Positions 33,001 through 56,000 are shown, counted from the stretch's first letter. The stretch: DNA of 64,000 nt from Auanema rhodensis (GCA_964057225.1 OZ059894.1:3534001-3598000), one strand, 5' to 3'. Notes: generated by a model from the sequence alone, not told the origin. Translations and numbers: made by a program.

Positions 33001-36000
33001 GCACCAATATCAATAAAAATTTGTTTATAGACTAATATGGACATGAGGAATCTAATTTTTTTGAAAACCGCATCTCTTCATCTTTCACGTGAAGCGAGTT
33101 ACATACCGAGTGCACATCACGTGTACACTTAATTAGCATAAATTAAAGTTCACTTAAATTTCAAAGTCATGGTTACCATCCACCAATATCAACAAAAATT
33201 TGTTTTTAGACTAATATGGACATGGGGAATCTAATTTTGAAAACCGCATCTCTTCATCTTTTACGTGAAGCGAGTTACATACCAAGTGCACATCACGTGT
33301 ACACTTAATTAGCATAAATTAAAGTTCACGTAAATTTCAAAGTCATGGTTACCATCCACCAATATCAATAAAAATTTGTTTTTAGACTAATATGGACATG
33401 GGGAATCTAATTTTGAAAACCGCATCCCTTTATCTTTCACGTGAAGCAAGTTACATACCAAGTGCACATCATGTGTACACTTAATTAGCATAAATTAAAG
33501 TTCACGTAAATTTTAAAGTCATGGTTACCATGCACCAATATCAATAAAAATTTGTTTTTAGAGTAATATGGACATGGGGAATCTAATTTTGAAAACCGCA
33601 TCCCTTTATCTTTCACGTGAAGCAAGTTACATACCAAGTGCACATCACGTGTACACTTAATTAGCATAAATTAAAGTTCACGTAAGTTTCAAAGTCATGG
33701 TTACCATGCACCAATATCAATAAAAATTCGTTTTTAGACTAATATGGACATGAGGAATCTAATTTTTTCGAAAACCGCATCTCTTCATCTTTCACGTGAA
33801 GCGAGTTACATACCAAGTGCACATCATGTGTACACTCAATCAGCATAAATTAAAGTTCACGTAAATTTCAAAGTCATGGTTACCATGCACCAATATTAAT
33901 AAAAATTTGTTTTTAGACTAATATGGACATGGGGAATCTAATTTTGAAAACCGCATCTCTTTATCTTTGACGTGAAGCGAGTTATATACCAAGTGCACAT
34001 CATGTGTACACTTAATTAGCATAAATTAAAGTTCACGTAAATTTCAAAGTCATGGTTACCATCCACCAATATCAACAAAAATTTGTTTTTAGACTAATAT
34101 GGACATGGGGAATCTAATTTTGAAAACCGCATCTCTTCATCTTTCACGTGAAGCGAGTTACATACCAAGTGCACATCACGTGTACACTTAATTAGCATAA
34201 ATTAAAGTTCACGTAAATTTTAAAGTCATGGTTACCATGCACCAATATCAATAAAAATTTGTTTTTAGACTAATATGGACATGGGGAATCTAATTTTGAA
34301 AACCGCATCTCTTTATCTTTGACGTGAAGCGAGTTACATACCGAGTGCACATCACGTGTACACTTAATTAGCATAAATTAAAGTTCACTTAAATTTCAAA
34401 GTCATGGTTACCATCCACCAATATCAACAAAAATTTGTTTTTAGACTAATATGGACATGGGGAATCTAATTTTGAAAACCGCATCTCTTCATCTTTTACG
34501 TGAAGCGAGTTACATACCAAGTGCACATCACGTGTACACTTAATTAGCATAAATTAAAGTTCACGTAAATTTCAAAGTCATGGTTACCATCCACCAATAT
34601 CAATAAAAATTTGTTTTTAGACTAATATGGACATGGGGAATCTAATTTTGAAAACCGCATCCCTTTATCTTTCACGTGAAGCAAGTTACATACCAAGTGC
34701 ACATCACGTGTACACTTAATAAGCATAAATTAAAGTTCACGTAAATTTCAAAGTCATGGTTACCATGCACCAATATCAATAAAAATTTGTTTATAGACTA
34801 ATATGGACATGAGGAATCTAATTTTTTTGAAAACCGCATCTCTTCATCTTTCACGTGAAGCGAGTTACATACCGAGTGCACATCACGTGTACACTTAATT
34901 AGCATAAATTAAAGTTCACTTAAATTTCAAAGTCATGGTTACCATCCACCAATATCAACAAAAATTTGTTTTTAGACTAATATGGACATGGGGAATCTAA
35001 TTTTGAAAACCGCATCTCTTCATCTTTTACGTGAAGCGAGTTACATACCAAGTGCACATCACGTGTACACTTAATTAGCATAAATTAAAGTTCACGTAAA
35101 TTTCAAAGTCATGGTTACCATCCACCAATATCAATAAAAATTTGTTTTTAGACTAATATGGACATGGGGAATCTAATTTTGAAAACCGCATCCCTTTATC
35201 TTTCACGTGAAGCAAGTTACATACCAAGTGCACATCATGTGTACACTTAATTAGCATAAATTAAAGTTCACGTAAATTTTAAAGTCATGGTTACCATGCA
35301 CCAATATCAATAAAAATTTGTTTTTAGAGTAATATGGACATGGGGAATCTAATTTTGAAAACCGCATCCCTTTATCTTTCACGTGAAGCAAGTTACATAC
35401 CAAGTGCACATCATGTGTACACTTAATTAGCATAAATTAAAGTTCACGTAAATTTCAAAGTCATGGTTACCATCCACCAATATCAATAAAAATTTGTTTT
35501 TAGACTAATATGGACATGGGGAATCTAATTTTGAAAACCGCATCCCTTTATCTTTCACGTGAAGCAAGTTAAATACCAAGTGCACATCATGTGTACACTT
35601 AATTAGCATAAATTAAAGTCCACGTAAATTTCAAAGTCATGGTTACCATCCACCAATATCAATAAAAATTTGTTTTTAGACTAATATGGACATGGGGAAT
35701 CTAATTTTGAAAACCGCATCTCTTTATCTTTGACTTGAAGCGAGTTACATACCAAGTGCACATCATGTGTACACTTAATTAGCATAAATTAAAGTTCACG
35801 TAAATTTCAAAGTCATGGTTACCATCCACCAATATCAACAAAAATTTGTTTTTAGACTAATATGGACATGGGGAATCTAATTTTGAAAACCGCATCTCTT
35901 CATCTTTCACGTGAAGCGAGTTACATACCAAGTGCACATCACGTGTACACTTAATTAGCATAAATTAAAGTTCACGTAAATTTTAAAGTCATGGTTACCA

Positions 36001-39000
36001 TGCACCAATATCAATAAAAATTTGTTTTTAGACTAATATGGACATGGGGAATCTAATTTTGAAAACCGCATCTCTTTATCTTTGACGTGAAGCGAGTTAC
36101 ATACCGAGTGCACATCATGTGTACACTTAATTAGCATAAATTAAAGTTCACTTAAATTTCAAAGTCATGGTTACCATCCACCAATATCAACAAAAATTTG
36201 TTTTTAGACTAATATGGACATGGGGAATCTAATTTTGAAAACCGCATCTCTTCATCTTTTACGTGAAGCGAGTTACATACCAAGTGCACATCACGTGTAC
36301 ACTTAATTAGCATAAATTAAAGTTCACGTAAATTTCAAAGTCATGGTTACCATCCACCAATATCAATAAAAATTTGTTTTTAGACTAATATGGACATGGG
36401 GAATCTAATTTTGAAAACCGCATCCCTTTATCTTTCACGTGAAGCAAGTTACATACCAAGTGCACATCATGTGTACACTTAATTAGCATAAATTAAAGTT
36501 CACGTAAATTTTAAAGTCATGGTTACCATGCACCAATATCAATAAAAATTTGTTTTTAGACTAATATGGACATGGGGAATCTAATTTTGAAAACCGCATC
36601 TCTTCATCTTTCACGTGAAGCGAGTTACATACCAAGTGCACATCACGTGTACACTTAATAAGCATAAATTAAAGTTCACGTAAATTTCAAAGTCATGGTT
36701 ACCATGCACCAATATCAATAAAAATTCGTTTTTAGACTAATATGGACATGAGGAATCTAATTTTGAAAACCGCATCTCTTCATCTTTCACGTGAAGCGAG
36801 TTACATACCAAGTGCACATCATGTGTACACTTAATTAGCATAAATTAAAGTTCACGTAAATTTCAAAGTCATGGTTACCATGCACCAATATTAATAAAAA
36901 TTTGTTTTTAGACTAATATGGACATGGGGAATCTAATTTTGAAAACCGCATCTCTTTATCTTTGACGTGAAGCGAGTTACATACCAAGTGCACATCATGT
37001 GTACACTTAATTAGCATAAATTAAAGTTCACGTAAATTTCAAAGTCATGGTTACCATCCACCAATATCAACAAAAATGTGTTTTTAGACTAATATGGACA
37101 TGGGGAATCTAATTTCGAAAAGCGCATCTCTTCATCTTTCACGTGAAGCGAGTTACATACCAAGTGCACATCATGTGTACACTTAATTAGCATAAATTAA
37201 AGTTCACGTAAATTTCAAAGTCATGGTTACCATGCACCAATATCAATAAAAATTTTTTTTTAGACTAATATGGACATGGGGAATCTAATTTTGAAAACCG
37301 CATCCCTTTATCTTTCACGTGAAGCGAGTTACATACCAAGTGCACATCACGTGTACACTTAATAAGCATAAATTAAAGTTCACGTAAATTTCAAAGTCAT
37401 GGTTACCATGCACCAATATCAATAAAAATTCGTTTTTAGACTAATATGGACATGAGGAATCTAATTTTTTTGAAAACCGCATCTCTTCATCTTTCACGTG
37501 AAGCAAGTTACATACCAAGTGCACATCATGTGTACACTCAATTAGCATAAATTAAAGTTCACGTAAATTTCAAAGTCATGGTTACCATGCACCAATATTA
37601 ATAAAAATTTGTTTTTAGACTAATATGGACATGGGGAATCTAATTTTGAAAACCGCAACTCTTTATCTTTGACGTAAAGCGAGTTACATACCAAGTGCAC
37701 ATCATGTGTACACTTAATTAGCATAAATTAAAGTTCACGTAAATTTTAAAGTCATGGTTGCCATGCACCAATATCAATAAAAATTTGTTTTTAGACTAAC
37801 ATGGAAATGGGGAATCTAATTTTGAAAACCGCATCTCTTTATCTTTCACGTGAAGCGAGTTACATACCAAGCGCACATCATGTGTACACTTAATTAGCAT
37901 AAATTAAAGTTCACGTAAATTTCAAAGTCATGGTTACCATGCACCAATATCAATAAAAATTTGTTTTTAGACTAATATGGACATGGGGAATCTAATTTTT
38001 TTGAAAACCGCATCTCTTCATCTTTCACGTGAAGCAAGTTACATACCAAGTGCACATCATGTGTACACTTAATTAGCATAAATTAAAGTTCACGTAAATT
38101 TCAAAGTCATGGTTACCATGCACCAATATCAATAAAAATTTTTTTTTAGACTAATATGGACATGGGGAATCTAATTTTGAAAACCGCATCCCTTTATCTT
38201 TCACGTGAAGCGAGTTACATACCAAGTGCACATCACGTGTACACTTAATAAGCATAAATTAAAGTTCACGTAAATTTCAAAGTCATGGTTACCATGCACC
38301 AATATCAATAAAAATTCGTTTTTAGACTAATATGGACATGAGGAATCTAATTTTTTTGAAAACCGCATCTCTTCATCTTTCACGTGAAGCAAGTTACATA
38401 CCAAGTGCACATCATGTGTACACTCAATTAGCATAAATTAAAGTTCACGTAAATTTCAAAGTCATGGTTACCATGCACCAATATTAATAAAAATTTGTTT
38501 TTAGACTAATATGGACATGGGGAATCTAATTTTGAAAACCGCAACTCTTTATCTTTGACGTAAAGCGAGTTACATACCAAGTGCACATCATGTGTACACT
38601 TAATTAGCATAAATTAAAGTTCACGTAAATTTTAAAGTCATGGTTGCCATGCACCAATATCAATAAAAATTTGTTTTTAGACTAACATGGAAATGGGGAA
38701 TCTAATTTTGAAAACCGCATCTCTTTATCTTTCACGTGAAGCGAGTTACATACCAAGCGCACATCATGTGTACACTTAATTAGCATAAATTAAAGTTCAC
38801 GTAAATTTCAAAGTCATGGTTACCATGCACCAATATCAATAAAAATTTGTTTTTAGACTAATATGGACATGGGGAATCTAATTTTGAAAACCGCATCTCT
38901 TTATCTTTGACGTAAAGCGAGTTACATACCAAGTGCACATCATGTGTACACTTAATTAGCATAAATTAAAGTTCACGTAAATTTCAAAGTCATGGTTACC

Positions 39001-42000
39001 ATTCACCAATATTAATAAAAATTTGTTTTTAGACTAATATGGAAATGGGGAATCTAATTTTGAAAACCGCATCTCTTCATCTTTCACGTGAAGCGAGTTA
39101 CATACCAAGTGCACATCATGTGTACACTTAATTAGCATAAATTAAAGTTCACGTAAATTTCAAAGTCATGGTTACCATGCACCAATATCAATAAAAATTT
39201 GTTTTTAGACTAATATGGACATGGGGAATCTAATTTTGAAAACCGCATCTCTTTATCTTTCACGTGAAGCGAGTTACATACCAAGTGCACATCATGTGTA
39301 CACTTAATTAGCATAAATTAAAGTTCACGTAAATTTCAAAGTCATGGTTGCCATGCACCAATATCAATAAATATTTGTTTTTAGACTAATTTGGAAATGG
39401 GGAATCTATTTTGAAAACCGCATCTCTTCATCTTTCACGTGAAGCGAGTTACATACCAAGTGCACATCACGTGTACACTTAATTAGCATAAATTGAAGTT
39501 CACGTAAATTTCAAAGTCATGGTTACCATGCACCAATATCAATAAAAATTTGTTTTTAGACTAATATGGAAATGGGGAATCTAATTTTGAAAACCGCATC
39601 TCTTTATCTTTGACGTAAAGCGAGTTACATACCAAGTGCACATCATGTGTACACTTAATTAGCATAAATTAAAGTTCACGTAAATTTCAAAGTCATGGTT
39701 ACCATTCACCAATATTAATAAAAATTTGTTTTTAGACTAATATGGAAATGGGGAATCTAATTTTGAAAACCGCATCTCTTCATCTTTCACGTGAAGCGAG
39801 TTACATACCAAGTGCACATCATGTGTACACTTAATTAGCATAAATTAAAGTTCACGTAAATTTCAAAGTCATGGTTACCATGCACCAATATCAATAAAAA
39901 TTTGTTTTTAGACTAATATGGACATGGGGAATCTAATTTTGAAAACCGCATCCCTTTATCTTTCACGTGAAGCGAGTTACATACCAAGTGCACATCACGT
40001 GTACACTTAATAAGCATAAATTAAAGTTCACGTAAATTTCAAAGTCATGGTTACCATGCACCAATATCAATAAAAATCCGTTTTTAGACTAATATGGACA
40101 TGGGGAATCTAATTTTGAAAACCGCATCTCTTTATCTTTGACGTAAAGCGAGTTACATACCAAGTGCACATCATGTGTACACTTAATTAGCATAAATTAA
40201 AGTTCACGTAAATTTCAAAGTCATGGTTACCATTCACCAATATTAATAAAAATTTGTTTTTAGACTAATATGGAAATGGGGAATCTAATTTTGAAAACCG
40301 CATCTCTTCATCTTTCACGTGAAGCGAGTTACATACCAAGTGCACATCATGTGTACACTTAATTAGCATAAATTAAAGTTCACGTAAATTTCAAAGTCAT
40401 GGTTACCATGCACCAATATCAATAAAAATTTGTTTTTAGACTAATATGGACATGGGGAATCTAATTTTGAAAACCGCATCTCTTTATCTTTCACGTGAAG
40501 CGAGTTACATACCAAGTGCACATCATGTGTACACTTAATTAGCATAAATTAAAGTTCACGTAAATTTCAAAGTCATGGTTGCCATGCACCAATATCAATA
40601 AAAATTTGTTTTTAGACTAATTTGGAAATGGGGAATCTATTTTGAAAACCGCATCTCTTCATCTTTCACGTGAAGCGAGTTACATACCAAGTGCACATCA
40701 CGTGTACACTTAATTAGCATAAATTGAAGTTCACGTAAATTTCAAAGTCATGGTTACCATGCACCAATATCAATAAAAATTTGTTTTTAGACTAATATGG
40801 AAATGGGGAATCTAATTTTGAAAACCGCATCTCTTTATCTTTGACGTAAAGCGAGTTACATACCAAGTGCACATCATGTGTACACTTAATTAGCATAAAT
40901 TAAAGTTCACGTAAATTTCAAAGTCATGGTTACCATTCACCAATATTAATAAAAATTTGTTTTTAGACTAATATGGAAATGGGGAATCTAATTTTGAAAA
41001 CCGCATCTCTTCATCTTTCACGTGAAGCGAGTTACATACCAAGTGCACATCATGTGTACACTTAATTAGCATAAATTAAAGTTCACGTAAATTTCAAAGT
41101 CATGGTTACCATGCACCAATATCAATAAAAATTTGTTTTTAGACTAATATGGACATGGGGAATCTAATTTTGAAAACCGCATCCCTTTATCTTTCACGTG
41201 AAGCGAGTTACATACCAAGTGCACATCACGTGTACACTTAATAAGCATAAATTAAAGTTCACGTAAATTTCAAAGTCATGGTTACCATGCACCAATATCA
41301 ATAAAAATCCGTTTTTAGACTAATATGGACATGGGGAATCTAATTTTGAAAACCGCATCCCTTTATCTTTCACGTGAAGCGAGTTACATACCAAGTGCAC
41401 ATCACGTGTACACTTAATTAGCATAAATTAAAGTTCACGTAAATTTCAAAGTCATGGTTACCATGCACCAATATCAATAAAAATTTTTTTTTAGACTAAT
41501 ATGGACATGGGGAATCTAATTTTGAAAACCGCATCCCTTTATCTTTCACCTGAAGCGAGTTACATACCAAGTGCACATCACGTGTACACTTAATAAGCAT
41601 AAATTAAAGTTCACGTAAATTTCAAAGTCATGGTTACCATCCACCAATATCAACAAAAATTTGTTTTTAGACTAATATGGACATGGGGAATCTAATTTTG
41701 AAAACCGCATCTCTTCATCTTTTACGTGAAGCGAGTTACATACCAAGTGCACATCACGTGTACACTTAATTAGCATAAATTAAAGTTCACGTAAATTTCA
41801 AAGTCATGGTTACCATCCACCAATATCAATAAAAATTTGTTTTTAGACTAATATGGACATGGGGAATCTAATTTTGAAAACCGCATCCCTTTATCTTTCA
41901 CGTGAAGCAAGTTACATACCAAGTGCACATCATGTGTACACTTAATTAGCATAAATTAAAGTTCACGTAAATTTTAAAGTCATGGTTACCATGCACCAAT

Positions 42001-42310
42001 ATCAATAAAAATTTGTTTTTAGACTAATATGGACATGGGGAATCTAATTTTGAAAACCGCATCCCTTTATCTTTCACGTGAAGCAAGTTACATACCAAGT
42101 GCACATCATGTGTACACTTAATTAACATAAATTAAAGTTCACGTAAATTTCAAAGTCATGGTTACCATCCACCAATATCAATAAAAATTTGTTTTTAGAC
42201 TAATATGGACATGGGGAATCTAATTTTGAAAACCGCATCCCTTTATCTTTCACGTGAAGCAAGTTAAATACCAAGTGCACATCATGTGTACACTTAATTA
42301 GCATAAATTA
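1..42310. repeat. 176-bp tandem satellite DNA array, left arm (~240 monomers; continues beyond the window start)
   Basis: Monomer AGTGCACATCATGTGTACACTTAATTAGCATAAATTAAAGTTCACGTAAATTTCAAAGTCATGGTTACCATGCACCAATATCAATAAAAATTTGTTTTTAGACTAATATGGACATGGGGAATCTAATTTTGAAAACCGCATCTCTTTATCTTTCACGTGAAGCGAGTTACATACCA recurs at 1, 177, 353 and so on. Copies differ by a few recurrent SNPs and 1-3 bp indels in the AATTTT tract. Confidence 0.99.
42306..42310 (+). repeat. Target-site duplication, left copy (AATTA)
   Basis: The empty site is GCATAAATTAAAGTTC. The left flank ends GCATAAATTA and the right flank begins AATTAAAGTTC. Confidence 0.85.
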
Positions 42311-42850
42311 GTCAAGGTTTATTGTTCTTTATCACAGGTTGTAACATTAGTGGTTTTTAAGAGAAGAAGTATGAAAAAAGATCCTTACAATACGAACATA
42401 ATTATAAAAATTAAAAAATGAATAAGCAATAAATGTGCAAAGTTGAAAAGAGTTATTGAATCAATTTTGTCTTTTAAGATACATACTTTTAGCTAGTCTC
42501 TCTATGTATTATGAAATGTTAACCCATTCTCAAAAAAACAGGGGAGTTGTTCAAATCAGATAAGTGATCTGACCTCTTTTTTTACGTTTACCAGGTGCGG
42601 TGGAACTTATAATAAAGTCGAGCCCGTTCTGGTAAGAAGAGGTAACTGTCACCTGGTTCGTATGGCCAATGCCTATAGAAACTATGGTGAAGTAACAGTG
42701 TAGCAAAGACGGAAGCGAGGATGTGGTTGGAACAAAACAGTGACACATAAAGTAACTTAGCTTTAAAAAGTTATAAAAAAACATATTGAGACAATAATTC
42801 AAAAAAATAGGACGCTAGACAAATATAGTACAAAAATGAGAAAAATAAAT
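42311..42850 (-). other. 540-bp 3' UTR of the LINE
   Basis: Lies between the ORF2 stop (42851-42853) and the satellite junction. T-rich on the sense strand with a more GC-rich core near 42550-42740. Confidence 0.85.
42318..42323 (-). promoter_or_regulatory. AATAAA polyadenylation-signal-like hexamer 7 nt from the element's 3' end
   Basis: Plus strand TTTATT. The sense strand ends ...GAACAATAAACCTTGAC followed by target TAATT. Confidence 0.6.
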
Positions 42851-45712
42851 TTAATGATTCTTAAGAAAAACTTGAAGATGTTTACGGAAGTTGACAGCTT
42901 TTTCAAGATTGACAATGTTCTCTGGTATTGAGTTCCAAGTGTCTATGCCTCTGTATTCAATACCTCTTCTGGTCTGAGTTTTCCGGAGGTTGGGATGCTC
43001 AACACTCCATTCATGTCGCCTCATGAAGTGTGTGTACTTTTTGAGCTTGAGAATATCCAAGCTATTATCTGAAGTAGGCGACTTTATTTGGTTAAAATAA
43101 AAAATCAAATCAAAAACGAGTCTTCTGAAAAATAACTTTTGACCTCCTAATAAAGAAAGTTGATTTTCATAGTTTATTTTAGATCCAGAGCGCATGAAAA
43201 CTGCGCGCAAAAACTTTTTCTGGACGTATTCGATCTGGTCCTTGTCTTTAGAATCCTGTGGTGACCAAATAATGGTAGCATATTCTAGAATCGGTCGTAT
43301 ATAAGTGCAAAAAAGATTATACATTAGAAAAGGTGATTTGGAGTAAAAACAACGTAAAATTATTCGACATTTCCGTGCCGCTTCGCTTGTAATTTTGTTT
43401 ATGTGGTTTGAAAAAGAGAGATTAGAGTTTGTTAAAACTCCTAGATCTTTGTAGCAGTCTACTAAAGATAGGTTACTGTCACCGAAGGTGAAGGCAATAT
43501 TTTCAGGATGACGGATCGACTTACTTGATATTACCATTATTTTAGATTTAGAAGTGTTGACGGCCATTCCGTTGGAGTTGCACCATAGTTCTAATTGATC
43601 AAGAGCACGTTGTAGACTGGTAGGGTTAGTACTGTACAGTTTCAAATCGTCTGCATAGAGAATAGAGTTAACATCAGCAGGAAAACTTGATGTAATATCA
43701 TTAATGTAATACAAAAACAACAAAGGACCAAGTACTGTACCTTGTGGTACACCACAAGTGAGTTGTACAGGTGGTGATAAAATATTATTGACCATAACTG
43801 AAAAAGACCTACCAGAAATAAAACTTTGGAGAAAATAATAAAGTGGGCCCTTGATTCCTATAGAGTTGAGCTTTGAAAAAAGAGTAAAGTGGTTTATAAG
43901 ATCGAAAGCTTTTGAAAAATCAATAAAAGCTACGAAAACCGGAATATTGCAGTCCAATGAAGACCTAAAGAAAATGTGGCTACTGAGAATAGCAGAAACA
44001 GTGTTTCTTTTAGGAAGAAAGGCGTGTTGATTTGTTGATATGGCACCATTAGAAATACCGAAATTCAAAAGTGGAGTACGTATGATACGCTCAAAAACTT
44101 TTGAAAGACTGGAAGTGAGTGAAATTGGGCGGTAGTTACCTGGATCGTCAGATTTGCCTGTCTTGAAAATGGGACGAATCCAGGCTAATTTCCAATCGGA
44201 AGGACAAGTAGCGGAAACCAGCAAATTGTGAAAAATAAAAGCTAATGGATTAGCTAAGGAAAAAGCACACTGTTTGAGAAAATAGTATGGAATGCCATCC
44301 GGGGACGTAGAAACTCTGAGTGGTAGATTTTGAAGAGTTTTGTAGAATAAATCAGGTGTTATATCTATAAAATCAATGGTATGATTGTGTGTGAAAGAAG
44401 GAGCGGGTGTGTGAGTTGTTTCTGGATGGACCAGTGGAGAAACAGTGAAAACATTAGCAAATGCTGACACTTTACCGACATCTGAAGAAACTGTCTCATT
44501 ATTGACAGTGAGGTTGGGAACGTCCGATGTATTACCATTTAATCGGGATTTACAAAAACGATAGAAAAGTTTAGGATTTTTTAAAGCAGCGATACGCTCT
44601 TCTTCTGAAGCACATTTGATTTTTATGAGTTTGTCCAATTTGATTGAAAGATTTTTACGATGGATTTCGTCAGATGAGTATAAAGAACAACTTAGCCTGT
44701 TTATATAGTTTCTGAGTTTTATAATGTCACGATCCACTTTTTTATTTTTCCTTGGTTGTTTTTTAGGAACAAAAGTATTAATGATTGAGTGTAAAATAGA
44801 AATGAATCTAGAATAAGATTGGAGTGGACTGAAGCCTGAAAGTTCAGAACAGAAATCAATGTTGGCTAGTTGCCTATTGATGAGCTCATAGTCCGCCAGA
44901 AGAAAATTCCGTTCCGTTGAAGTGGAAAGAAGTGTGGATTGAACACTACGTGAATTTTGGATTTGTAAACTCTGCCCTTTTGAAAGTATCTGGAAGGTTA
45001 TTGAAAAATGGTCAGAAGCTCCTAGAGGAGCAGAACGGTTGATGTTGTTGATACATTCGACGTTGTTTGTAATGATATAGTCAAGAGTATTTTCACCTCT
45101 TGTAGGGAAATGGACCAGCTGGTTGAGACAGTTGTGATTGAGAAATTTAAGTAAAGTTTTACTCGAAGGAGTAGGTTGAGAACACATACCAAGATCCCAG
45201 TTTATTTTAGGAAAATTAAGGTCACCTGTGAGAACAAGAGTACGATTGAATAAATGATTCTGAAGATCACAAAGGTAATTGGAAAAATCTGAATGTGATG
45301 ATGATGGGGAACGATAACAAACAGAGAAAATAGAATTAGAAGAAGTAATGAGGATATTTATAAATTGAATGGTGGATGAGTTAGGGGAACAAGAAAGTAG
45401 AGAAAAAGTAATGTGTTTTTTAACAAAGAGTAAAACACCACCTCCACGTGAGTAACACCTATCAGCCCTAAGGATATTATAGGTGTCACCTAACGGTAGA
45501 AGATTGGTGTTAAACTGAGGGTAAAGCCAAGATTCTGATATAGCAATTATATCAGGAGCTTTAGGAAAAATGATAATTGGAAGAAGATGGAGTTTGTTAA
45601 GGATTGAGCGTGCATTGTAACAGTGAACAGAAATGTGAGTGGAGTGAGAGACGTAGACAGGTGTTGATATGGACGTTGAATTAACGAAAGGACACGTTAT
45701 CGGACAAAACAA
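42851..45712 (-). CDS. LINE ORF2: apurinic-like endonuclease plus reverse transcriptase (no AUG start; probably entered by +1 frameshift near 45688)
   Basis: APE motifs YNARS, ISESWL, RADR..RGGGV, YRSP, GDLN, LDY, SDH. RT motifs PIFKTG..NYRPISL, QHAF, FIDFSKAFD, GVPQGTVLGPLLF, YADD (43646-43657), YKDLGV. No internal stops. The listed start is TTG, and the frame is open from 45736. Confidence 0.96.
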   Translation of the reverse strand: MFCPITCPFVNSTSISTPVYVSHSTHISVHCYNARSILNKLHLLPIIIFPKAPDIIAISESWLYPQFNTNLLPLGDTYNILRADRCYSRGGGVLLFVKKHITFSLLSCSPNSSTIQFINILITSSNSIFSVCYRSPSSSHSDFSNYLCDLQNHLFNRTLVLTGDLNFPKINWDLGMCSQPTPSSKTLLKFLNHNCLNQLVHFPTRGENTLDYIITNNVECINNINRSAPLGASDHFSITFQILSKGQSLQIQNSRSVQSTLLSTSTERNFLLADYELINRQLANIDFCSELSGFSPLQSYSRFISILHSIINTFVPKKQPRKNKKVDRDIIKLRNYINRLSCSLYSSDEIHRKNLSIKLDKLIKIKCASEEERIAALKNPKLFYRFCKSRLNGNTSDVPNLTVNNETVSSDVGKVSAFANVFTVSPLVHPETTHTPAPSFTHNHTIDFIDITPDLFYKTLQNLPLRVSTSPDGIPYYFLKQCAFSLANPLAFIFHNLLVSATCPSDWKLAWIRPIFKTGKSDDPGNYRPISLTSSLSKVFERIIRTPLLNFGISNGAISTNQHAFLPKRNTVSAILSSHIFFRSSLDCNIPVFVAFIDFSKAFDLINHFTLFSKLNSIGIKGPLYYFLQSFISGRSFSVMVNNILSPPVQLTCGVPQGTVLGPLLFLYYINDITSSFPADVNSILYADDLKLYSTNPTSLQRALDQLELWCNSNGMAVNTSKSKIMVISSKSIRHPENIAFTFGDSNLSLVDCYKDLGVLTNSNLSFSNHINKITSEAARKCRIILRCFYSKSPFLMYNLFCTYIRPILEYATIIWSPQDSKDKDQIEYVQKKFLRAVFMRSGSKINYENQLSLLGGQKLFFRRLVFDLIFYFNQIKSPTSDNSLDILKLKKYTHFMRRHEWSVEHPNLRKTQTRRGIEYRGIDTWNSIPENIVNLEKAVNFRKHLQVFLKNH
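45681..45692 (-). other. Candidate +1 programmed ribosomal frameshift site UCC_UUU_CGU_UAA at the ORF1/ORF2 overlap
   Basis: The minus strand reads GTG TCC TTT CGT TAA in the ORF1 frame and TTC GTT AAT TCA (F V N S) in the ORF2 frame. The 9-mer matches the influenza PA-X shift motif. Confidence 0.7.
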
Positions 45713-46742
45713 CGGAAGATGGTGCGGAAGGACTACTCATAGATCTGGTATTTGGTCCAGTTGATTTAGCTGAGCGAGGCGGATTTTTTCTCCTCCTTGG
45801 ACTTATAGAATGATTTTTGTTGGTCGATACAGATACCTCTCTCTCATTAGACCGACTGGATCTACCAGATTTACGAGGGGGGCTAGAAATAATAGAAGAA
45901 ACAGGCTTTGAAGTGGTACTGTGGTCAGAATCAACTCCTGAAGGGGTTTCAAGTTGTTGAGTGTCCGCAGAGACAGAGAGAGTGTTAATGGCATGCAAAG
46001 TAGAATCGGTGGATTTACGAAGAACCTCAATAATTTTGAGATCGCGCACAAGGAAAATGCTTTTGGTGTTGTTATCGTTTTTGATCTTAGCTTCATTTCG
46101 CAATTGTTTTTCCAGTTCAATCTCGAACGGAAGATAATCTCGCCGTAAAAACGTTTTTGAAAGAGAGTCAAAGCATTTTGACTTATTAGACTTTATAACT
46201 TTGATAATTTCATCACGTAAATCAACCGATGGACATGTAATGATAAGAGGACCAGGGAAATTAGATTTAAGAGTGGAACGTGCAATGGTGATTTGGTTAC
46301 TATCGATCAGAGAAGACAAAGTAGTGTTTTGAGACTTTTCAATGATGAGTTTCAATAACAACAGAGGTTCAGTTGGAAAATCTGTTGACGTTATAGGTAC
46401 TCGGAACCAAAGAGCTCTTTTGGCACGGTAAAGGTATTTTGTCTCCTCTGATCGTAGTTTTTGAAAATGGCATGCCACATTTAAATGAGAAGAAGTTGAA
46501 GCAGAAATAGAATTAGGGTTAGTAACGGTTTGAAAAGAAGAGATAGTTTGCTCTAATTTATCTAAACGGGATTTGAAATCCGTTTCAATAAATTTCAAGC
46601 GAGCCTCATGTGACGTGATGTTGCTTTTCATACTATTGAGCTCATTTTTTATATCATTAGACAATTTTGAGAATGAGTTTTCGAGAGATTTTGAAAAATT
46701 TTGAAGAGCATTTGTAAGAAAATCATTAGTCACATAAGACAT
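45681..46742 (-). CDS. LINE ORF1 protein (353 aa from the first ATG, MSYVTNDF...): N-terminal coiled coil, central putative nucleic-acid-binding domain, Ser/Arg/Pro-rich basic tail
   Basis: The ORF track starts it at a TTG (46919) inside the 5' repeats, and the first 59 codons translate a T-rich UTR. The first ATG is at 46742. Heptad-like segment LQNFSKSLENSFSKLSNDIKNELNSMKSNITSHEARLKFIETDFKSRLDKLEQTI. Motif FLRRDYLPFEIELEKQLRNEAK...FLVRDLKI. Position directly upstream of the EN-RT ORF. Confidence 0.88.
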   Translation of the reverse strand: MSYVTNDFLTNALQNFSKSLENSFSKLSNDIKNELNSMKSNITSHEARLKFIETDFKSRLDKLEQTISSFQTVTNPNSISASTSSHLNVACHFQKLRSEETKYLYRAKRALWFRVPITSTDFPTEPLLLLKLIIEKSQNTTLSSLIDSNQITIARSTLKSNFPGPLIITCPSVDLRDEIIKVIKSNKSKCFDSLSKTFLRRDYLPFEIELEKQLRNEAKIKNDNNTKSIFLVRDLKIIEVLRKSTDSTLHAINTLSVSADTQQLETPSGVDSDHSTTSKPVSSIISSPPRKSGRSSRSNEREVSVSTNKNHSISPRRRKNPPRSAKSTGPNTRSMSSPSAPSSVVLSDNVSFR

Positions 46743-46893
46743 GATGAAATGAAATAGAAAAAAAACAGTGAAGTGAAAAAATAAGATAATAAAAGGAAAT
46801 GAAAAGCGAGTAAGAAAAAACAAAAGAAAGAGCGTACCTTGACAAAACCAGTCCGACGAAAAATCCTCGACAGAAACAGATCCAAACAGCCAA

Positions 46894-47009
46894 AGGTCAA
46901 CTGACGAACGGGAGGTCAACTGACGAACGGGAGGTCAACTGTGACGAACGGGAGGTCAACTGACGCACGGGAGGTCAACTGACGAACGGGGATCAACTGA
47001 CGAACGGGG
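46894..47009 (-). repeat. Six ~19-bp tandem repeats forming the element's 5' end (plus-strand unit AGGTCAACTGACGAACGGG); candidate internal promoter
   Basis: Units at 46894-46912, 46913-46931, 46932-46952 (2-bp insertion), 46953-46971 (1 SNP), 46972-46990 and 46991-47008 (diverged, 18 bp). The repeat is directly visible. Promoter function is inference. Confidence 0.9.
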
Positions 47010-47014
47010 AATTA
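47010..47014 (+). repeat. Target-site duplication, right copy (AATTA)
   Basis: Matches 42306-42310. The first A could belong to the element, which would make the TSD 4 bp. Confidence 0.82.
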
Positions 47015-50000
47015 AAGTTCACGTAAATTTCAAAGTCATGGTTACCATCCACCAATATCAATAAAAATTTGTTTTTAGACTAATATGGACATGGGGAATC
47101 TAATTTTGAAAACCGCATCTCTTTATCTTTGACTTGAAGCGAGTTACATACCAAGTGCACATCATGTGTACACTTAATTAGCATAAATTAAAGTTCACGT
47201 AAATTTCAAAGTCATGGTTACCATCCACCAATATCAACAAAAATTTGTTTTTAGACTAATATGGACATGGGGAATCTAATTTTGAAAACCGCATCTCTTC
47301 ATCTTTCACGTGAAGCGAGTTACATACCAAGTGCACATCACGTGTACACTTAATTAGCATAAATTAAAGTTCACGTAAATTTTAAAGTCATGGTTACCAT
47401 GCACCAATATCAATAAAAATTTGTTTTTAGACTAATATGGACATGGGGAATCTAATTTTGAAAACCGCATCTCTTTATCTTTGACGTGAAGCGAGTTACA
47501 TACCGAGTGCACATCACGTGTACACTTAATTAGCATAAATTAAAGTTCACTTAAATTTCAAAGTCATGGTTACCATCCACCAATATCAACAAAAATTTGT
47601 TTTTAGACTAATATGGACATGGGGAATCTAATTTTGAAAACCGCATCTCTTCATCTTTTACGTGAAGCGAGTTACATACCAAGTGCACATCACGTGTACA
47701 CTTAATTAGCATAAATTAAAGTTCACGTAAATTTCAAAGTCATGGTTACCATCCACCAATATCAATAAAAATTTGTTTTTAGACTAATATGGACATGGGG
47801 AATCTAATTTTGAAAACCGCATCCCTTTATCTTTCACGTGAAGCAAGTTACATACCAAGTGCACATCATGTGTACACTTAATTAGCATAAATTAAAGTTC
47901 ACGTAAATTTTAAAGTCATGGTTACCATGCACCAATATCAATAAAAATTTGTTTTTAGACTAATATGGACATGGGGAATCTAATTTTGAAAACCGCATCT
48001 CTTCATCTTTCACGTGAAGCGAGTTACATACCAAGTGCACATCACGTGTACACTTAATAAGCATAAATTAAAGTTCACGTAAATTTCAAAGTCATGGTTA
48101 CCATGCACCAATATCAATAAAAATTCGTTTTTAGACTAATATGGACATGAGGAATCTAATTTTGAAAACCGCATCTCTTCATCTTTCACGTGAAGCGAGT
48201 TACATACCAAGTGCACATCATGTGTACACTTAATTAGCATAAATTAAAGTTCACGTAAATTTCAAAGTCATGGTTACCATGCACCAATATTAATAAAAAT
48301 TTGTTTTTAGACTAATATGGACATGGGGAATCTAATTTTGAAAACCGCATCTCTTTATCTTTGACGTGAAGCGAGTTACATACCAAGTGCACATCATGTG
48401 TACACTTAATTAGCATAAATTAAAGTTCACGTAAATTTCAAAGTCATGGTTACCATCCACCAATATCAACAAAAATTTGTTTTTAGACTAATATGGACAT
48501 GGGGAATCTAATTTTGAAAACCGCATCTCTTCATCTTTCACGTGAAGCGAGTTACATACCAAGTGCACATCACGTGTACACTTAATTAGCATAAATTAAA
48601 GTTCACGTAAATTTTAAAGTCATGGTTACCATGCACCAATATCAATAAAAATTTGTTTTTAGACTAATATGGACATGGGGAATCTAATTTTGAAAACCGC
48701 ATCTCTTTATCTTTGACGTGAAGCGAGTTACATACCGAGTGCACATCACGTGTACACTTAATTAGCATAAATTAAAGTTCACTTAAATTTCAAAGTCATG
48801 GTTACCATCCACCAATATCAACAAAAATTTGTTTTTAGACTAATATGGACATGGGGAATCTAATTTTGAAAACCGCATCTCTTCATCTTTTACGTGAAGC
48901 GAGTTACATACCAAGTGCACATCACGTGTACACTTAATTAGCATAAATTAAAGTTCACGTAAATTTCAAAGTCATGGTTACCATCCACCAATATCAATAA
49001 AAATTTGTTTTTAGACTAATATGGACATGGGGAATCTAATTTTGAAAACCGCATCCCTTTATCTTTCACGTGAAGCAAGTTACATACCAAGTGCACATCA
49101 TGTGTACACTTAATTAGCATAAATTAAAGTTCACGTAAATTTTAAAGTCATGGTTACCATGCACCAATATCAATAAAAATTTGTTTTTAGACTAATATGG
49201 ACATGGGGAATCTAATTTTGAAAACCGCATCTCTTCATCTTTCACGTGAAGCGAGTTACATACCAAGTGCACATCACGTGTACACTTAATAAGCATAAAT
49301 TAAAGTTCACGTAAATTTCAAAGTCATGGTTACCATGCACCAATATCAATAAAAATTCGTTTTTAGACTAATATGGACATGAGGAATCTAATTTTGAAAA
49401 CCGCATCTCTTCATCTTTCACGTGAAGCGAGTTACATACCAAGTGCACATCATGTGTACACTTAATTAGCATAAATTAAAGTTCACGTAAATTTCAAAGT
49501 CATGGTTACCATGCACCAATATTAATAAAAATTTGTTTTTAGACTAATATGGACATGGGGAATCTAATTTTGAAAACCGCATCTCTTTATCTTTGACGTG
49601 AAGCGAGTTACATACCAAGTGCACATCATGTGTACACTTAATTAGCATAAATTAAAGTTCACGTAAATTTCAAAGTCATGGTTACCATCCACCAATATCA
49701 ACAAAAATGTGTTTTTAGACTAATATGGACATGGGGAATCTAATTTCGAAAAGCGCATCTCTTCATCTTTCACGTGAAGCGAGTTACATACCAAGTGCAC
49801 ATCATGTGTACACTTAATTAGCATAAATTAAAGTTCACGTAAATTTCAAACTCATGGTTACCATGCACCAATATCAATAAAAATTTTTTTTTAGACTAAT
49901 ATGGACATGGGGAATCTAATTTTGAAAACCGCATCCCTTTATCTTTCACGTGAAGCGAGTTACATACCAAGTGCACATCACGTGTACACTTAATAAGCAT

Positions 50001-53000
50001 AAATTAAAGTTCACGTAAATTTCAAAGTCATGGTTACCATGCACCAATATCAATAAAAATTCGTTTTTAGACTAATATGGACATGAGGAATCTAATTTTT
50101 TTGAAAACCGCATCTCTTCATCTTTCACGTGAAGCAAGTTACATACCAAGTGCACATCATGTGTACACTCAATTAGCATAAATTAAAGTTCACGTAAATT
50201 TCAAAGTCATGGTTACCATGCACCAATATTAATAAAAATTTGTTTTTAGACTAATATGGACATGGGGAATCTAATTTTGAAAACCGCAACTCTTTATCTT
50301 TGACGTAAAGCGAGTTACATACCAAGTGCACATCATGTGTACACTTAATTAGCATAAATTAAAGTTCACGTAAATTTTAAAGTCATGGTTGCCATGCACC
50401 AATATCAATAAAAATTTGTTTTTAGACTAACATGGAAATGGGGAATCTAATTTTGAAAACCGCATCTCTTTATCTTTCACGTGAAGCGAGTTACATACCA
50501 AGCGCACATCATGTGTACACTTAATTAGCATAAATTAAAGTTCACGTAAATTTCAAAGTCATGGTTACCATGCACCAATATCAATAAAAATTTGTTTTTA
50601 GACTAATATGGACATGGGGAATCTAATTTTTTTGAAAACCGCATCTCTTCATCTTTCACGTGAAGCAAGTTACATACCAAGTGCACATCATGTGTACACT
50701 TAATTAGCATAAATTAAAGTTCACGTAAATTTCAAAGTCATGGTTACCATGCACCAATATCAATAAAAATTTTTTTTTAGACTAATATGGACATGGGGAA
50801 TCTAATTTTGAAAACCGCATCCCTTTATCTTTCACGTGAAGCGAGTTACATACCAAGTGCACATCACGTGTACACTTAATAAGCATAAATTAAAGTTCAC
50901 GTAAATTTCAAAGTCATGGTTACCATGCACCAATATCAATAAAAATTCGTTTTTAGACTAATATGGACATGAGGAATCTAATTTTTTTGAAAACCGCATC
51001 TCTTCATCTTTCACGTGAAGCAAGTTACATACCAAGTGCACATCATGTGTACACTCAATTAGCATAAATTAAAGTTCACGTAAATTTCAAAGTCATGGTT
51101 ACCATGCACCAATATTAATAAAAATTTGTTTTTAGACTAATATGGACATGGGGAATCTAATTTTGAAAACCGCAACTCTTTATCTTTGACGTAAAGCGAG
51201 TTACATACCAAGTGCACATCATGTGTACACTTAATTAGCATAAATTAAAGTTCACGTAAATTTTAAAGTCATGGTTGCCATGCACCAATATCAATAAAAA
51301 TTTGTTTTTAGACTAACATGGAAATGGGGAATCTAATTTTGAAAACCGCATCTCTTTATCTTTCACGTGAAGCGAGTTACATACCAAGCGCACATCATGT
51401 GTACACTTAATTAGCATAAATTAAAGTTCACGTAAATTTCAAAGTCATGGTTACCATGCACCAATATCAATAAAAATTTGTTTTTAGACTAATATGGACA
51501 TGGGGAATCTAATTTTGAAAACCGCATCTCTTTATCTTTGACGTAAAGCGAGTTACATACCAAGTGCACATCATGTGTACACTTAATTAGCATAAATTAA
51601 AGTTCACGTAAATTTCAAAGTCATGGTTACCATTCACCAATATTAATAAAAATTTGTTTTTAGACTAATATGGAAATGGGGAATCTAATTTTGAAAACCG
51701 CATCTCTTCATCTTTCACGTGAAGCGAGTTACATACCAAGTGCACATCATGTGTACACTTAATTAGCATAAATTAAAGTTCACGTAAATTTCAAAGTCAT
51801 GGTTACCATGCACCAATATCAATAAAAATTTGTTTTTAGACTAATATGGACATGGGGAATCTAATTTTGAAAACCGCATCTCTTTATCTTTCACGTGAAG
51901 CGAGTTACATACCAAGTGCACATCATGTGTACACTTAATTAGCATAAATTAAAGTTCACGTAAATTTCAAAGTCATGGTTGCCATGCACCAATATCAATA
52001 AAAATTTGTTTTTAGACTAATTTGGAAATGGGGAATCTATTTTGAAAACCGCATCTCTTCATCTTTCACGTGAAGCGAGTTACATACCAAGTGCACATCA
52101 TGTGTACACTTAATTAGCATAAATTAAAGTTCACGTAAATTTCAAAGTCATGGTTACCATGCACCAATATCAATAAAAATTTGTTTTTAGACTAATATGG
52201 ACATGGGGAATCTAATTTTGAAAACCGCATCTCTTTATCTTTCACGTGAAGCGAGTTACATACCAAGTGCACATCATGTGTACACTTAATTAGCATAAAT
52301 TAAAGTTCACGTAAATTTCAAAGTCATGGTTGCCATGCACCAATATCAATAAATATTTGTTTTTAGACTAATTTGGAAATGGGGAATCTATTTTGAAAAC
52401 CGCATCTCTTCATCTTTCACGTGAAGCGAGTTACATACCAAGTGCACATCACGTGTACACTTAATTAGCATAAATTGAAGTTCACGTAAATTTCAAAGTC
52501 ATGGTTACCATGCACCAATATCAATAAAAATTTGTTTTTAGACTAATATGGAAATGGGGAATCTAATTTTGAAAACCGCATCTCTTTATCTTTGACGTAA
52601 AGCGAGTTACATACCAAGTGCACATCATGTGTACACTTAATTAGCATAAATTAAAGTTCACGTAAATTTCAAAGTCATGGTTACCATTCACCAATATTAA
52701 TAAAAATTTGTTTTTAGACTAATATGGAAATGGGGAATCTAATTTTGAAAACCGCATCTCTTCATCTTTCACGTGAAGCGAGTTACATACCAAGTGCACA
52801 TCATGTGTACACTTAATTAGCATAAATTAAAGTTCACGTAAATTTCAAAGTCATGGTTACCATGCACCAATATCAATAAAAATTTGTTTTTAGACTAATA
52901 TGGACATGGGGAATCTAATTTTGAAAACCGCATCCCTTTATCTTTCACGTGAAGCGAGTTACATACCAAGTGCACATCACGTGTACACTTAATAAGCATA

Positions 53001-56000
53001 AATTAAAGTTCACGTAAATTTCAAAGTCATGGTTACCATGCACCAATATCAATAAAAATCCGTTTTTAGACTAATATGGACATGGGGAATCTAATTTTGA
53101 AAACCGCATCTCTTTATCTTTGACGTAAAGCGAGTTACATACCAAGTGCACATCATGTGTACACTTAATTAGCATAAATTAAAGTTCACGTAAATTTCAA
53201 AGTCATGGTTACCATTCACCAATATTAATAAAAATTTGTTTTTAGACTAATATGGAAATGGGGAATCTAATTTTGAAAACCGCATCTCTTCATCTTTCAC
53301 GTGAAGCGAGTTACATACCAAGTGCACATCATGTGTACACTTAATTAGCATAAATTAAAGTTCACGTAAATTTCAAAGTCATGGTTACCATGCACCAATA
53401 TCAATAAAAATTTGTTTTTAGACTAATATGGACATGGGGAATCTAATTTTGAAAACCGCATCTCTTTATCTTTGACGTAAAGCGAGTTACATACCAAGTG
53501 CACATCATGTGTACACTTAATTAGCATAAATTAAAGTTCACGTAAATTTCAAAGTCATGGTTACCATTCACCAATATTAATAAAAATTTGTTTTTAGACT
53601 AATATGGAAATGGGGAATCTAATTTTGAAAACCGCATCTCTTCATCTTTCACGTGAAGCGAGTTACATACCAAGTGCACATCATGTGTACACTTAATTAG
53701 CATAAATTAAAGTTCACGTAAATTTCAAAGTCATGGTTACCATGCACCAATATCAATAAAAATTTGTTTTTAGACTAATATGGACATGGGGAATCTAATT
53801 TTGAAAACCGCATCTCTTTATCTTTCACGTGAAGCGAGTTACATACCAAGTGCACATCATGTGTACACTTAATTAGCATAAATTAAAGTTCACGTAAATT
53901 TCAAAGTAATGGTTGCCATGCACCAATATCAATAAAAATTTGTTTTTAGACTAATTTGGAAATGGGGAATCTATTTTGAAAACCGCATCTCTTCATCTTT
54001 CACGTGAAGCGAGTTACATACCAAGTGCACATCACGTGTACACTTAATTAGCATAAATTGAAGTTCACGTAAATTTCAAAGTCATGGTTACCATGCACCA
54101 ATATCAATAAAAATTTGTTTTTAGACTAATATGGAAATGGGGAATCTAATTTTGAAAACCGCATCTCTTTATCTTTGACGTAAAGCGAGTTACATACCAA
54201 GTGCACATCATGTGTACACTTAATTAGCATAAATTAAAGTTCACGTAAATTTCAAAGTCATGGTTACCATTCACCAATATTAATAAAAATTTGTTTTTAG
54301 ACTAATATGGAAATGGGGAATCTAATTTTGAAAACCGCATCTCTTCATCTTTCACGTGAAGCGAGTTACATACCAAGTGCACATCATGTGTACACTTAAT
54401 TAGCATAAATTAAAGTTCACGTAAATTTCAAAGTCATGGTTACCATGCACCAATATCAATAAAAATTTGTTTTTAGACTAATATGGACATGGGGAATCTA
54501 ATTTTGAAAACCGCATCCCTTTATCTTTCACGTGAAGCGAGTTACATACCAAGTGCACATCACGTGTACACTTAATAAGCATAAATTAAAGTTCACGTAA
54601 ATTTCAAAGTCATGGTTACCATGCACCAATATCAATAAAAATCCGTTTTTGGACTAATATGGACATGGGGAATCTAATTTTGAAAACCGCATCCCTTTAT
54701 CTTTCACGTGAAGCGAGTTACATACCAAGTGCACATCACGTGTACACTTAATTAGCATAAATTAAAGTTCACGTAAATTTCAAAGTCATGGTTACCATGC
54801 ACCAATATCAATAAAAATTTTTTTTTAGACTAATATGGACATGGGGAATCTAATTTTGAAAACCGCATCCCTTTATCTTTCACCTGAAGCGAGTTACATA
54901 CCAAGTGCACATCACGTGTACACTTAATAAGCATAAATTAAAGTTCACGTAAATTTCAAAGTCATGGTTACCATGCACCAATATCAATAAAAATTTTTTT
55001 TTAGACTAATATGGACATGGGGAATCTAATTTTGAAAACCGCATCCCTTTATCTTTCACCTGAAGCGAGTTACATACCAAGTGCACATCACGTGTACACT
55101 TAATAAGCATAAATTAAAGTTCACGTAAATTTCAAAGTCATGGTTACCATCCACCAATATCAACAAAAATTTGTTTTTAGACTAATATGGACATGGGGAA
55201 TCTAATTTTGAAAACCGCATCTCTTCATCTTTTACGTGAAGCGAGTTACATACCAAGTGCACATCACGTGTACACTTAATTAGCATAAATTAAAGTTCAC
55301 GTAAATTTCAAAGTCATGGTTACCATCCACCAATATCAATAAAAATTTGTTTTTAGACTAATATGGACATGGGGAATCTAATTTTGAAAACCGCATCCCT
55401 TTATCTTTCACGTGAAGCAAGTTACATACCAAGTGCACATCATGTGTACACTTAATTAGCATAAATTAAAGTTCACGTAAATTTTAAAGTCATGGTTACC
55501 ATGCACCAATATCAATAAAAATTTGTTTTTAGACTAATATGGACATGGGGAATCTAATTTTGAAAACCGCATCCCTTTATCTTTCACGTGAAGCAAGTTA
55601 CATACCAAGTGCACATCATGTGTACACTTAATTAGCATAAATTAAAGTTCACGTAAATTTCAAAGTCATGGTTACCATCCACCAATATCAATAAAAATTT
55701 GTTTTTAGACTAATATGGACATGGGGAATCTAATTTTGAAAACCGCATCCCTTTATCTTTCACGTGAAGCAAGTTAAATACCAAGTGCACATCATGTGTA
55801 CACTTAATTAGCATAAATTAAAGTTCACGTAAATTTCAAAGTCATGGTTACCATCCACCAATATCAATAAAAATTTGTTTTTAGACTAATATGGACATGG
55901 GGAATCTAATTTTGAAAACCGCATCTCTTTATCTTTGACTTGAAGCGAGTTACATACCAAGTGCACATCATGTGTACACTTAATTAGCATAAATTAAAGT

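Follow-up and report, generated by a model that had tools for sequence, protein, structure and literature searches.

At the UCC_UUU_CGU site of influenza A PA-X, +1 slippage has been shown by mass spectrometry at 0.7–1.3%, and the role of a rare A-site codon as stimulator is called uncertain (PMC3498833; this and the other papers cited were available as excerpts). Related viral +1 sites are predicted in amalgaviruses, fijiviruses, and CBPV/LSV (PMC3498833, PMC5052127), and the antizyme of C. elegans-related nematodes has a UUU-UGA +1 site (PMC1874602). For long interspersed nuclear elements (LINEs), translation of the second open reading frame (ORF2) has been described as an open question (PMC3894237). 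A −1 frameshift is stated or suggested for Dictyostelium TRE5-A/TRE3-A (PMC5911963), a +1 shift or reinitiation is given for groups 1-2 of the Paramecium LINEs with readthrough also proposed among groups 1-3 (PMC5405496), and a gag frameshift is described for HeT-A (PMC5009743). We analyzed a 64,000-nucleotide stretch of DNA from the nematode Auanema rhodensis (GCA_964057225.1 OZ059894.1:3534001-3598000, hereafter the window) that contains one LINE, and we consider it probable, from its sequence and that of relatives, that +1 P-site slippage at the UUU_C of G_UCC_UUU_CGU_UAA yields a 1296-aa fusion of ORF1 with the endonuclease (EN) and reverse transcriptase (RT) of ORF2.

The element, which we put provisionally in the CR1 group from likeness (its exact clade could be CR1, L2, Crack, or Daphne), resembles other APE LINEs of that group (Jockey superfamily) in having ORF1 followed by an EN-RT ORF2, a short target-site duplication, and an L1-like ORF1. 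It lies on the minus strand, as do all of its parts described below. ORF1 (45681..46742; ATG at 46742, TAA at 45683-45681) encodes 353 aa, the stop being included in the span, and ends in GTG TCC TTT CGT TAA, with TCC at 45692-90, TTT at 45689-87, and CGT at 45686-84. Translation of both frames places ORF2 in the +1 frame with an overlap of 56 nt (45681..45736). ORF2 (42851..45736) has 961 codons from stop to stop; its frame is free of stops from 45736 to 42851, just after an in-frame TGA at 45739-45737. This geometry, described in an earlier note on the same DNA, was borne out by the sequence, and recomputing the length of the predicted fusion gave the same 352 + 944 = 1296 aa. An AUG ahead of EN in sister copies would, by the note, refute its reading; in this copy there is none, the first Met of ORF2 being codon 184 (45187), which lies within the endonuclease.

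The predicted +1 shift site, identified from sequence and comparison, is G_UCC_UUU_CGU followed by the ORF1 stop UAA (45681..45693), and TCCTTTCG is found once in the whole element. Given the base composition of the element, the chance of an in-phase motif in the 18 overlap codons is ~4e-4 for UCC_UUU_CG, 0.02 for UUU_CG, and 0.37 for UUU_Y, each value referring to a single motif and uncorrected for the number of motifs a reader might accept. The window has the in-phase UUU_C with an open +1 frame downstream, the E-site UCC, and the A-site CGN of a PA-X-type site. The A-site codon is not rare: CGU is the commonest Arg codon of the element (23/68, counted in the element). The preceding GTG is its rarest Val codon (6/62) and supplies the G at −4. 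Folding revealed no RNA structure flanking the shift site (z-scores 0.07, −0.84, and 0.02), and the junction, with its +1 offset, has no −1 slippery heptamer. A −2 slip was rejected by inference, as tRNA-Phe would have to re-pair on CCU.

Compared with PA-X, the junction has the identical 9-nt motif in phase, a +1 overlap, the same predicted tRNA-Phe slip, the S-F-V junction, and no 3′ structure. It differs in that CGU is common, that in LINE relatives the A-site codon changes while (G)YCY_UUU_Y is kept, and that the slip is a prediction. The S-F-V likeness, put forward in the earlier note, stands insofar as the predicted product matches the PA-X peptide (PMC3498833); among relatives, Phe is followed by various residues. 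The nematode antizyme site shares the P-site UUU slip to +1, and the relatives L006/L066 (CCC_UUU_UAA) and L093 (UUU_UAG) have the same layout; it differs from the window, where the A site is a sense codon and not a stop, and no polyamine regulation is implied. TRE5-A/TRE3-A, the Paramecium LINEs, and HeT-A are alike in that ORF2 or the full protein is proposed to need a frame change or readthrough, but they belong to other clades and hosts, and the excerpts name no UUU_Y site and hold no offset-matched survey. SART1, with its UAAUG coupling, and mammalian L1 share a bicistronic RNA and low ORF2 output (PMC10275272, PMC3894237, PMC5009743); they produce free ORF2p, whereas the junction here has an overlap, no UAAUG stop-start or other AUG, and no downstream RNA structure. 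The proposed slip would work like the gag-pol +1 frameshift of yeast Ty1/Ty3 (PMC5911963), setting the ratio of structural protein to RT where the structural gene is about to end, but Ty1/Ty3 are long terminal repeat (LTR) elements with other shift sites and a protease.

The junction is bridged in four of four runs by a contig with 0-1 substitutions and no gap (X1 rec 4, X2 rec 13, X4 rec 23, and X7 rec 27, from three studies, one of them possibly the window's own source). A sister subfamily that is ~83% identical (X2 rec 12, X4 rec 22) differs by four gaps that cancel out two by two, and it retains the +1 offset, as read from the gaps alone (40 of 293 substitution rows being listed). The 1-bp indel in the copy or assembly that the earlier note had named as a way to overturn its reading was thus checked, and the offset held in both sets.

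A survey of related LINE loci was used to compare the offset between the two ORFs with the signal at the junction. It comprised 102 loci: the best 80 of 402 confirmed stretches from a metagenome scan (21/64 parts) and 22 more from a scan of a genome collection. The EN frame and the upstream long frame with its stop were determined for each. Loci were dropped (n = 41) if no upstream stop-free frame of at least 100 codons ended near EN or if the ORF2 frame did not extend upstream as far as the ORF1 stop; L060, one of these, is same-frame with UGA_C on inspection. Usable junctions numbered 61 of 102, with 28 at +1, 24 at −1, and 9 in the same frame. L005 and L050 were counted as +1 misses though they resemble broken copies of readthrough families. 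Scans of viral contigs gave no usable relative, L001 being excluded because it is without EN.

An in-frame UUU_Y no more than 12 codons from the ORF1 stop and inside the overlap occurs in 18 of 28 +1 loci vs 4 of 33 others. For YCY_UUU_Y the counts are 16/28 and 0/33, and the motif turns up in 2 of 471 background windows taken from those ORF1s. Grouped into 60% families, they become 9/20 vs 0/28 (Fisher P = 1e-4); among intact-looking loci they are 15/20 vs 0/28, or 7/11 vs 0/18 by 50% families (P = 2e-4). The −1 loci have an in-phase X_XXY_YYZ heptamer in the overlap (21 of 24), which is found in 0 of 28 +1 loci and has a background of 0.0024 per codon. UGA_C is a readthrough context, and it surrounds the ORF1 stop at eight of the nine same-frame loci (L021, L041, L062, L077, L081, L082, L083, and L086), as UGA_CU in 6/9 and UGA_CA in 2. 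The −1 heptamers are mostly A_AAA_AAC and mostly within ~20 nt of the opening of the ORF2 frame, in overlaps of up to 625 nt (e.g., L028, L046, L049, and L090); L007 is an esterase-ORF1 element with a U_UUA_AAC heptamer.

The 18 motif-bearing relatives were also used to define which parts of the site are shared. Of these, 16 have YCY in the E site and 4 have CGN in the A site. UUU_CGU itself is present at four loci from two families (L019, L036, L031, and L032), so that CGU follows UUU in 2 of 11 families. The UUU_CGU or UUU_CGN motif of the earlier note is therefore not general; the shared core is (G)YCY_UUU_Y, judging from these sequences, with a variable A-site codon and a variable stop distance. 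The ORF1 stop lies 1-12 codons past UUU in relatives, and the distance from UUU to the start of EN is 28-85 nt in the 14 relatives listed; in the window the N-terminal NARS motif of the endonuclease is 73 nt past the UUU codon. CGU as a slow codon and the adjacent UAA, the two sources of a pause offered earlier, both fell away: because CGU is common and the stop distance varies, slippage would depend on neither of the two.

Codon choice around the motif is also biased. The last Phe codon of the ORF1 tail in +1 families is UUU in 12/12 (usage 0.71, P = 0.015), with C or U as the following base in 11/12 (P = 6e-5). At third codon positions near the motif, 9 of 11 families have G at −4 (4.3 expected, P = 1e-3) and 11 of 11 have Y at −1 (P = 0.009); the window has both. 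The upstream G_YCY is the best lead for a stimulus, in line with an E-site effect reported in the excerpted text on PA-X (PMC3498833). The motif is common to PHD-type ORF1s (L006, L008, L017, and L037, two of them above the Pfam cut-off) and to the L1-like ORF1 of the window. Two +1 loci that have no UUU_Y, L024 and L026, have CCC_UAA at the ORF1 stop, which resembles the CCC-stop sites described for certain fungal antizymes (PMC1874602) and is possibly a second +1 signal.

A tree was built with FastTree from the EN-linker sequences of unnamed loci (457 columns, midpoint root), excluding L066 and L074 as short and the 22 later loci. Most motif-bearing loci fall in one clade, with L037 and L056 outside it. 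The window and nematode-like proteins are sister to the +1/readthrough branch (support 0.97). The same-frame UGA_C loci are placed among the +1 families.

Closer relatives of the window were compared at the protein level. A full HMMER scan with ORF1 gave seven matches. The three strongest are labeled Auanema sp. JU1783 by NCBI (E values 3e-24 to 4e-19, 29–32% identity) and terminate in SFRK, SFR, and TFRK, as against SFR in the window. The terminal FR is fixed relative to the stop and not to the upstream shared peptide, and tail lengths vary among the Auanema relatives. Away from their ends, the four ORF1 proteins contain FR at 4 of 1467 positions and never contain S/T-FR. A terminal S/T-F-R is the expected trace of a conserved UCN/ACN_UUU_CGN. 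A fourth, weak match is a gene model with ORF1 and EN fused. A word-indexed protein search with ORF1 gave no match, and one with the ORF1 alignment gave P0109 alone.

The programmed +1 slip proposed in the earlier note thus has comparative support, from the terminal S/T-F-R(K) of three relatives and an enrichment of YCY_UUU_Y confined to +1 LINEs. We also think it rather likely, with less assurance than for the window itself, that CR1-group LINEs generally make an ORF1-ORF2 fusion in the manner of Gag-Pol, switching according to the offset among +1 (G)YCY_UUU_Y, −1 X_XXY_YYZ, and UGA_C readthrough. In that event the element of the window would represent nematodes among the +1 users, and PA-X would be one member of a wider +1 class in eukaryotes, defined by (G)YCY_UUU_Y.

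Several observations weigh against a programmed slip, or against its generality. Inspection of the data preceded the choice of the YCY, 12-codon, and G(−4) rules, and plain UUU_Y within a 20-codon range is not significant by 50% families (P = 0.11). The concentration of most motif-bearing loci in one clade means that the P values overstate independence, and the number of independent motif origins may be small. Of the 22 held-out loci, five had a usable junction: three with UGA_C, one with a −1 heptamer, and one at +1. That sole +1 junction, L093 (UGU_UUU_UAG), has UUU_Y and not YCY. UUU_Y is missing in 10 of 28 +1 loci, four of which sit in the −1 branch and may be miscalled, and two of which end in CCC_UAA. 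An in-frame Met precedes EN in the open ORF2 frame at 11 of 18 motif-bearing loci, in L037 at the NARS position. The surveyed metagenome loci are distant, with at most 35% identity to the ORF2 of the window. The Auanema ORF1 evidence is protein only, and the nucleotide support comes from the distant LINEs; the weak ORF1 matches P0107, P0108, and P0109 have no terminal FR. Within the window, YCY_UUU_Y occurs in frame once more, at ORF1 codon 70. A PAM2-like peptide near some ORF1 ends, taken up below, could fix Pro-Phe at the protein level.

Under +1 slippage, most ribosomes would stop at UAA and release the 353-aa ORF1p. In a small share (~1% if like PA-X), P-site tRNA-Phe would re-pair from UUU (45689-87) to UUC and translation would continue in ORF2. 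The 1296-aa ORF1-EN-RT product would have the disordered Ser-rich tail of ORF1 as its linker and would stay whole unless the host cuts it; no protease was found in the element. Slippage at this low level would set a high ratio of ORF1p to RT. It could also keep RT bound, through the ORF1p multimer, to the RNA that encodes it. The +1 slip is favored by the absence of an AUG before EN and of an AG acceptor, by the phase of the motif, and by the offset-matched signals of relatives.

The alternative that survives best, though we think it unlikely, is termination at the ORF1 UAA followed by AUG-free reinitiation at a near-cognate codon of the ORF2 frame, as for mammalian L1, with release of free ORF2p and UUU_C as a bystander. 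Near-cognate codons do lie in the ORF2 frame by the stop (ACG at 45676, 4 nt past it, ATA at 45670, ACG at 45697, and ATA at 45700), and in some +1 relatives EN is closely preceded by a Met. The excerpts describe AUG-independent initiation as likely for mammalian LINE ORF2 (PMC5009743) and reinitiation as the route used by SART1 (PMC10275272, PMC3894237). However, reinitiation predicts neither a signal that matches the offset in three classes nor the biases in UUU, the next base, and third positions, and the UAAUG and downstream structure of SART1 are missing here.

We give little credence to a second alternative, in which a C-terminal ORF1p peptide (Pro/Ser-Phe-Arg or a PAM2-like motif that binds poly(A)-binding protein) is conserved instead of an RNA signal and ORF2 is made otherwise. 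The protein-level nature of the Auanema FR evidence would fit it, as would the LNxxAxPFxP-like peptides near the ORF1 end in L021, L060, L062, L086, L035, and L037, which resemble the PAM2 consensus. The base after the Phe codon separates the two cases: it is a purine in same-frame PAM2-like loci (L021 UUU_G, L060 UUU_G, L062 UUC_A, and L086 UUU_G), in contrast to the pyrimidine seen in 11 of 12 +1 families. Synonymous positions are biased around the motif, and the ORF1 ends of the window and the Auanema relatives do not fit the PAM2-like pattern. In a looser form, LN/DPxAxxFxP-like peptides were seen at the ORF1 ends of L021, L060, L062, L086, L082, L035, L037, and L019, and in the ORF2 frame of L050; the +1 product of L035 and of L036 would complete F-x-P. 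Such sequences suggest that ORF1p binds poly(A)-binding protein in these elements. A literature search on PAM2 in such elements gave no paper among the matches listed.

Joining of ORF1 to ORF2 by splicing, or production of ORF2 from a separate trans-spliced or internally started RNA, seems very improbable. Nematodes trans-splice, and the Pristionchus models that fuse ORF1-like and EN sequence would be consistent with a splice, but a gene finder may have produced those models by mending a frame change. No splice acceptor AG lies between 45733 and the start of EN, and the two AGs just upstream, at 45737 and 45734, have neither the TTTCAG-like context that is the nematode acceptor consensus nor an AUG between them and EN. 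Splicing would, moreover, be copied into genomic copies. That a 1-bp indel in the copy or assembly conceals a single ORF, or that the copy is dead, is barely credible: several relatives are broken copies with a wrong apparent offset (L050, L060, and probably L005), but here ORF1 has a stop in its own frame, the ORF2-frame stop is 56 nt upstream, both ORFs are intact, and the four runs and the 83% sister subfamily largely refute it.

A +1 slip at UUU_C would mean that a motif class already known occurs in a kind of element where it is new, and the sequences likely point to a wider rule for CR1-group LINE junctions. The novelty claimed for LINEs in the earlier note needs qualification. Our literature search, of partial coverage, brought up no LINE described as having a UUU_C or PA-X-type site, and an earlier mention is possible; LINE frameshifting as such had already been stated or suggested for TRE5-A/TRE3-A and Paramecium. 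Nothing relevant was seen in the excerpts of PMC13343379, PMC11203168, PMC4700185, PMC7175516, or PMC4120745, the last treating ORF1 types only. If true, programmed recoding is how animal LINEs of a large group obtain their RT, as an ORF1-EN-RT fusion and not as the free ORF2p of L1 and SART1, which would change models of ribonucleoprotein formation and of RT preference for its own RNA. It would account for the many ORF2s without a Met, and annotation that repairs such junctions as indels or introns would be wrong. The PA-X motif class would reach from RNA viruses to genomic elements and offer natural variants for studying structure-free +1 stimulation.

Domain assignments are consistent with an APE-type element. 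Within ORF2, the APE-type endonuclease domain (44999..45619; Pfam PF14529, E = 2.9e-9, and PF03372, E = 1.3e-6) is followed by the reverse transcriptase domain (43526..44155; PF00078, E = 9.1e-33), the order of an APE-type non-LTR retrotransposon. ORF1 reaches no Pfam family cut-off, and an Atlas search with it gave only unnamed clusters below 0.9. In its AlphaFold2 model (six-sequence alignment, mean predicted local distance difference test [pLDDT] score 67), a long helix is accompanied by an RRM-like domain and a small C-terminal one, and the tail, from residue 246 on, is disordered. This predicted arrangement of coiled coil, RRM-like domain, and C-terminal domain is like that of human L1 ORF1p and gives the element an upstream ORF1 with an RNA-binding fold. 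Foldseek against PDB places human LINE-1 ORF1p chains in each of the 11 best rows for the model (best E = 1.2e-4). The Ser-rich tail (aa 246-353; 45684..46007) is predicted to be disordered, with pLDDT < 50 over residues 246-353.

The window is a 176-bp satellite array interrupted by this single 4.7-kb minus-strand LINE. By repeat analysis the array occupies 1..42310 (240 copies) and 47010..64000 (96 copies); it is homogeneous, with 95% matches over 336 copies, and the lone LINE inside it is intact and apparently young. The full-length CR1-group non-LTR retrotransposon spans 42311..47009, between the end of the satellite at 42310 and its restart at 47010, and has two intact ORFs. Its two ends are dissimilar, as in an element without LTRs, and it is flanked by a 5-bp target-site duplication, AATTA (left 42306..42310, right 47010..47014). 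Repeat analysis found six 19-bp tandem repeats at the 5′ end (46894..47008), a possible repeated internal promoter. The 3′ untranslated region (540 nt, 42311..42850) has AATAAA close to its end and lacks a poly(A) tail.

No match found exceeds 35% identity to ORF2, and the named relatives of the element are nematode, with Pristionchus gene models for ORF2 and the Auanema sp. JU1783 matches for ORF1. Six Pristionchus models (P0020, P0025, P0046, P0089, P0094, and P0095) have an ORF1-like part and EN in one protein, and are either true single-ORF elements or the product of predicted introns that mask a frame change. The 22 loci from the genome collection (L082-L103) are animal-type LINE EN matches in prokaryote genome records, mostly short contigs of metagenome-assembled genomes, and are likely host contamination. 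The runs contain several subfamilies of the window's element, which are ~17% divergent over ORF1 and the start of EN but merge into a single near-identical contig at 44300-44621. This pattern over 44300-46900 may reflect swapped 5′ halves on a common 3′ part.

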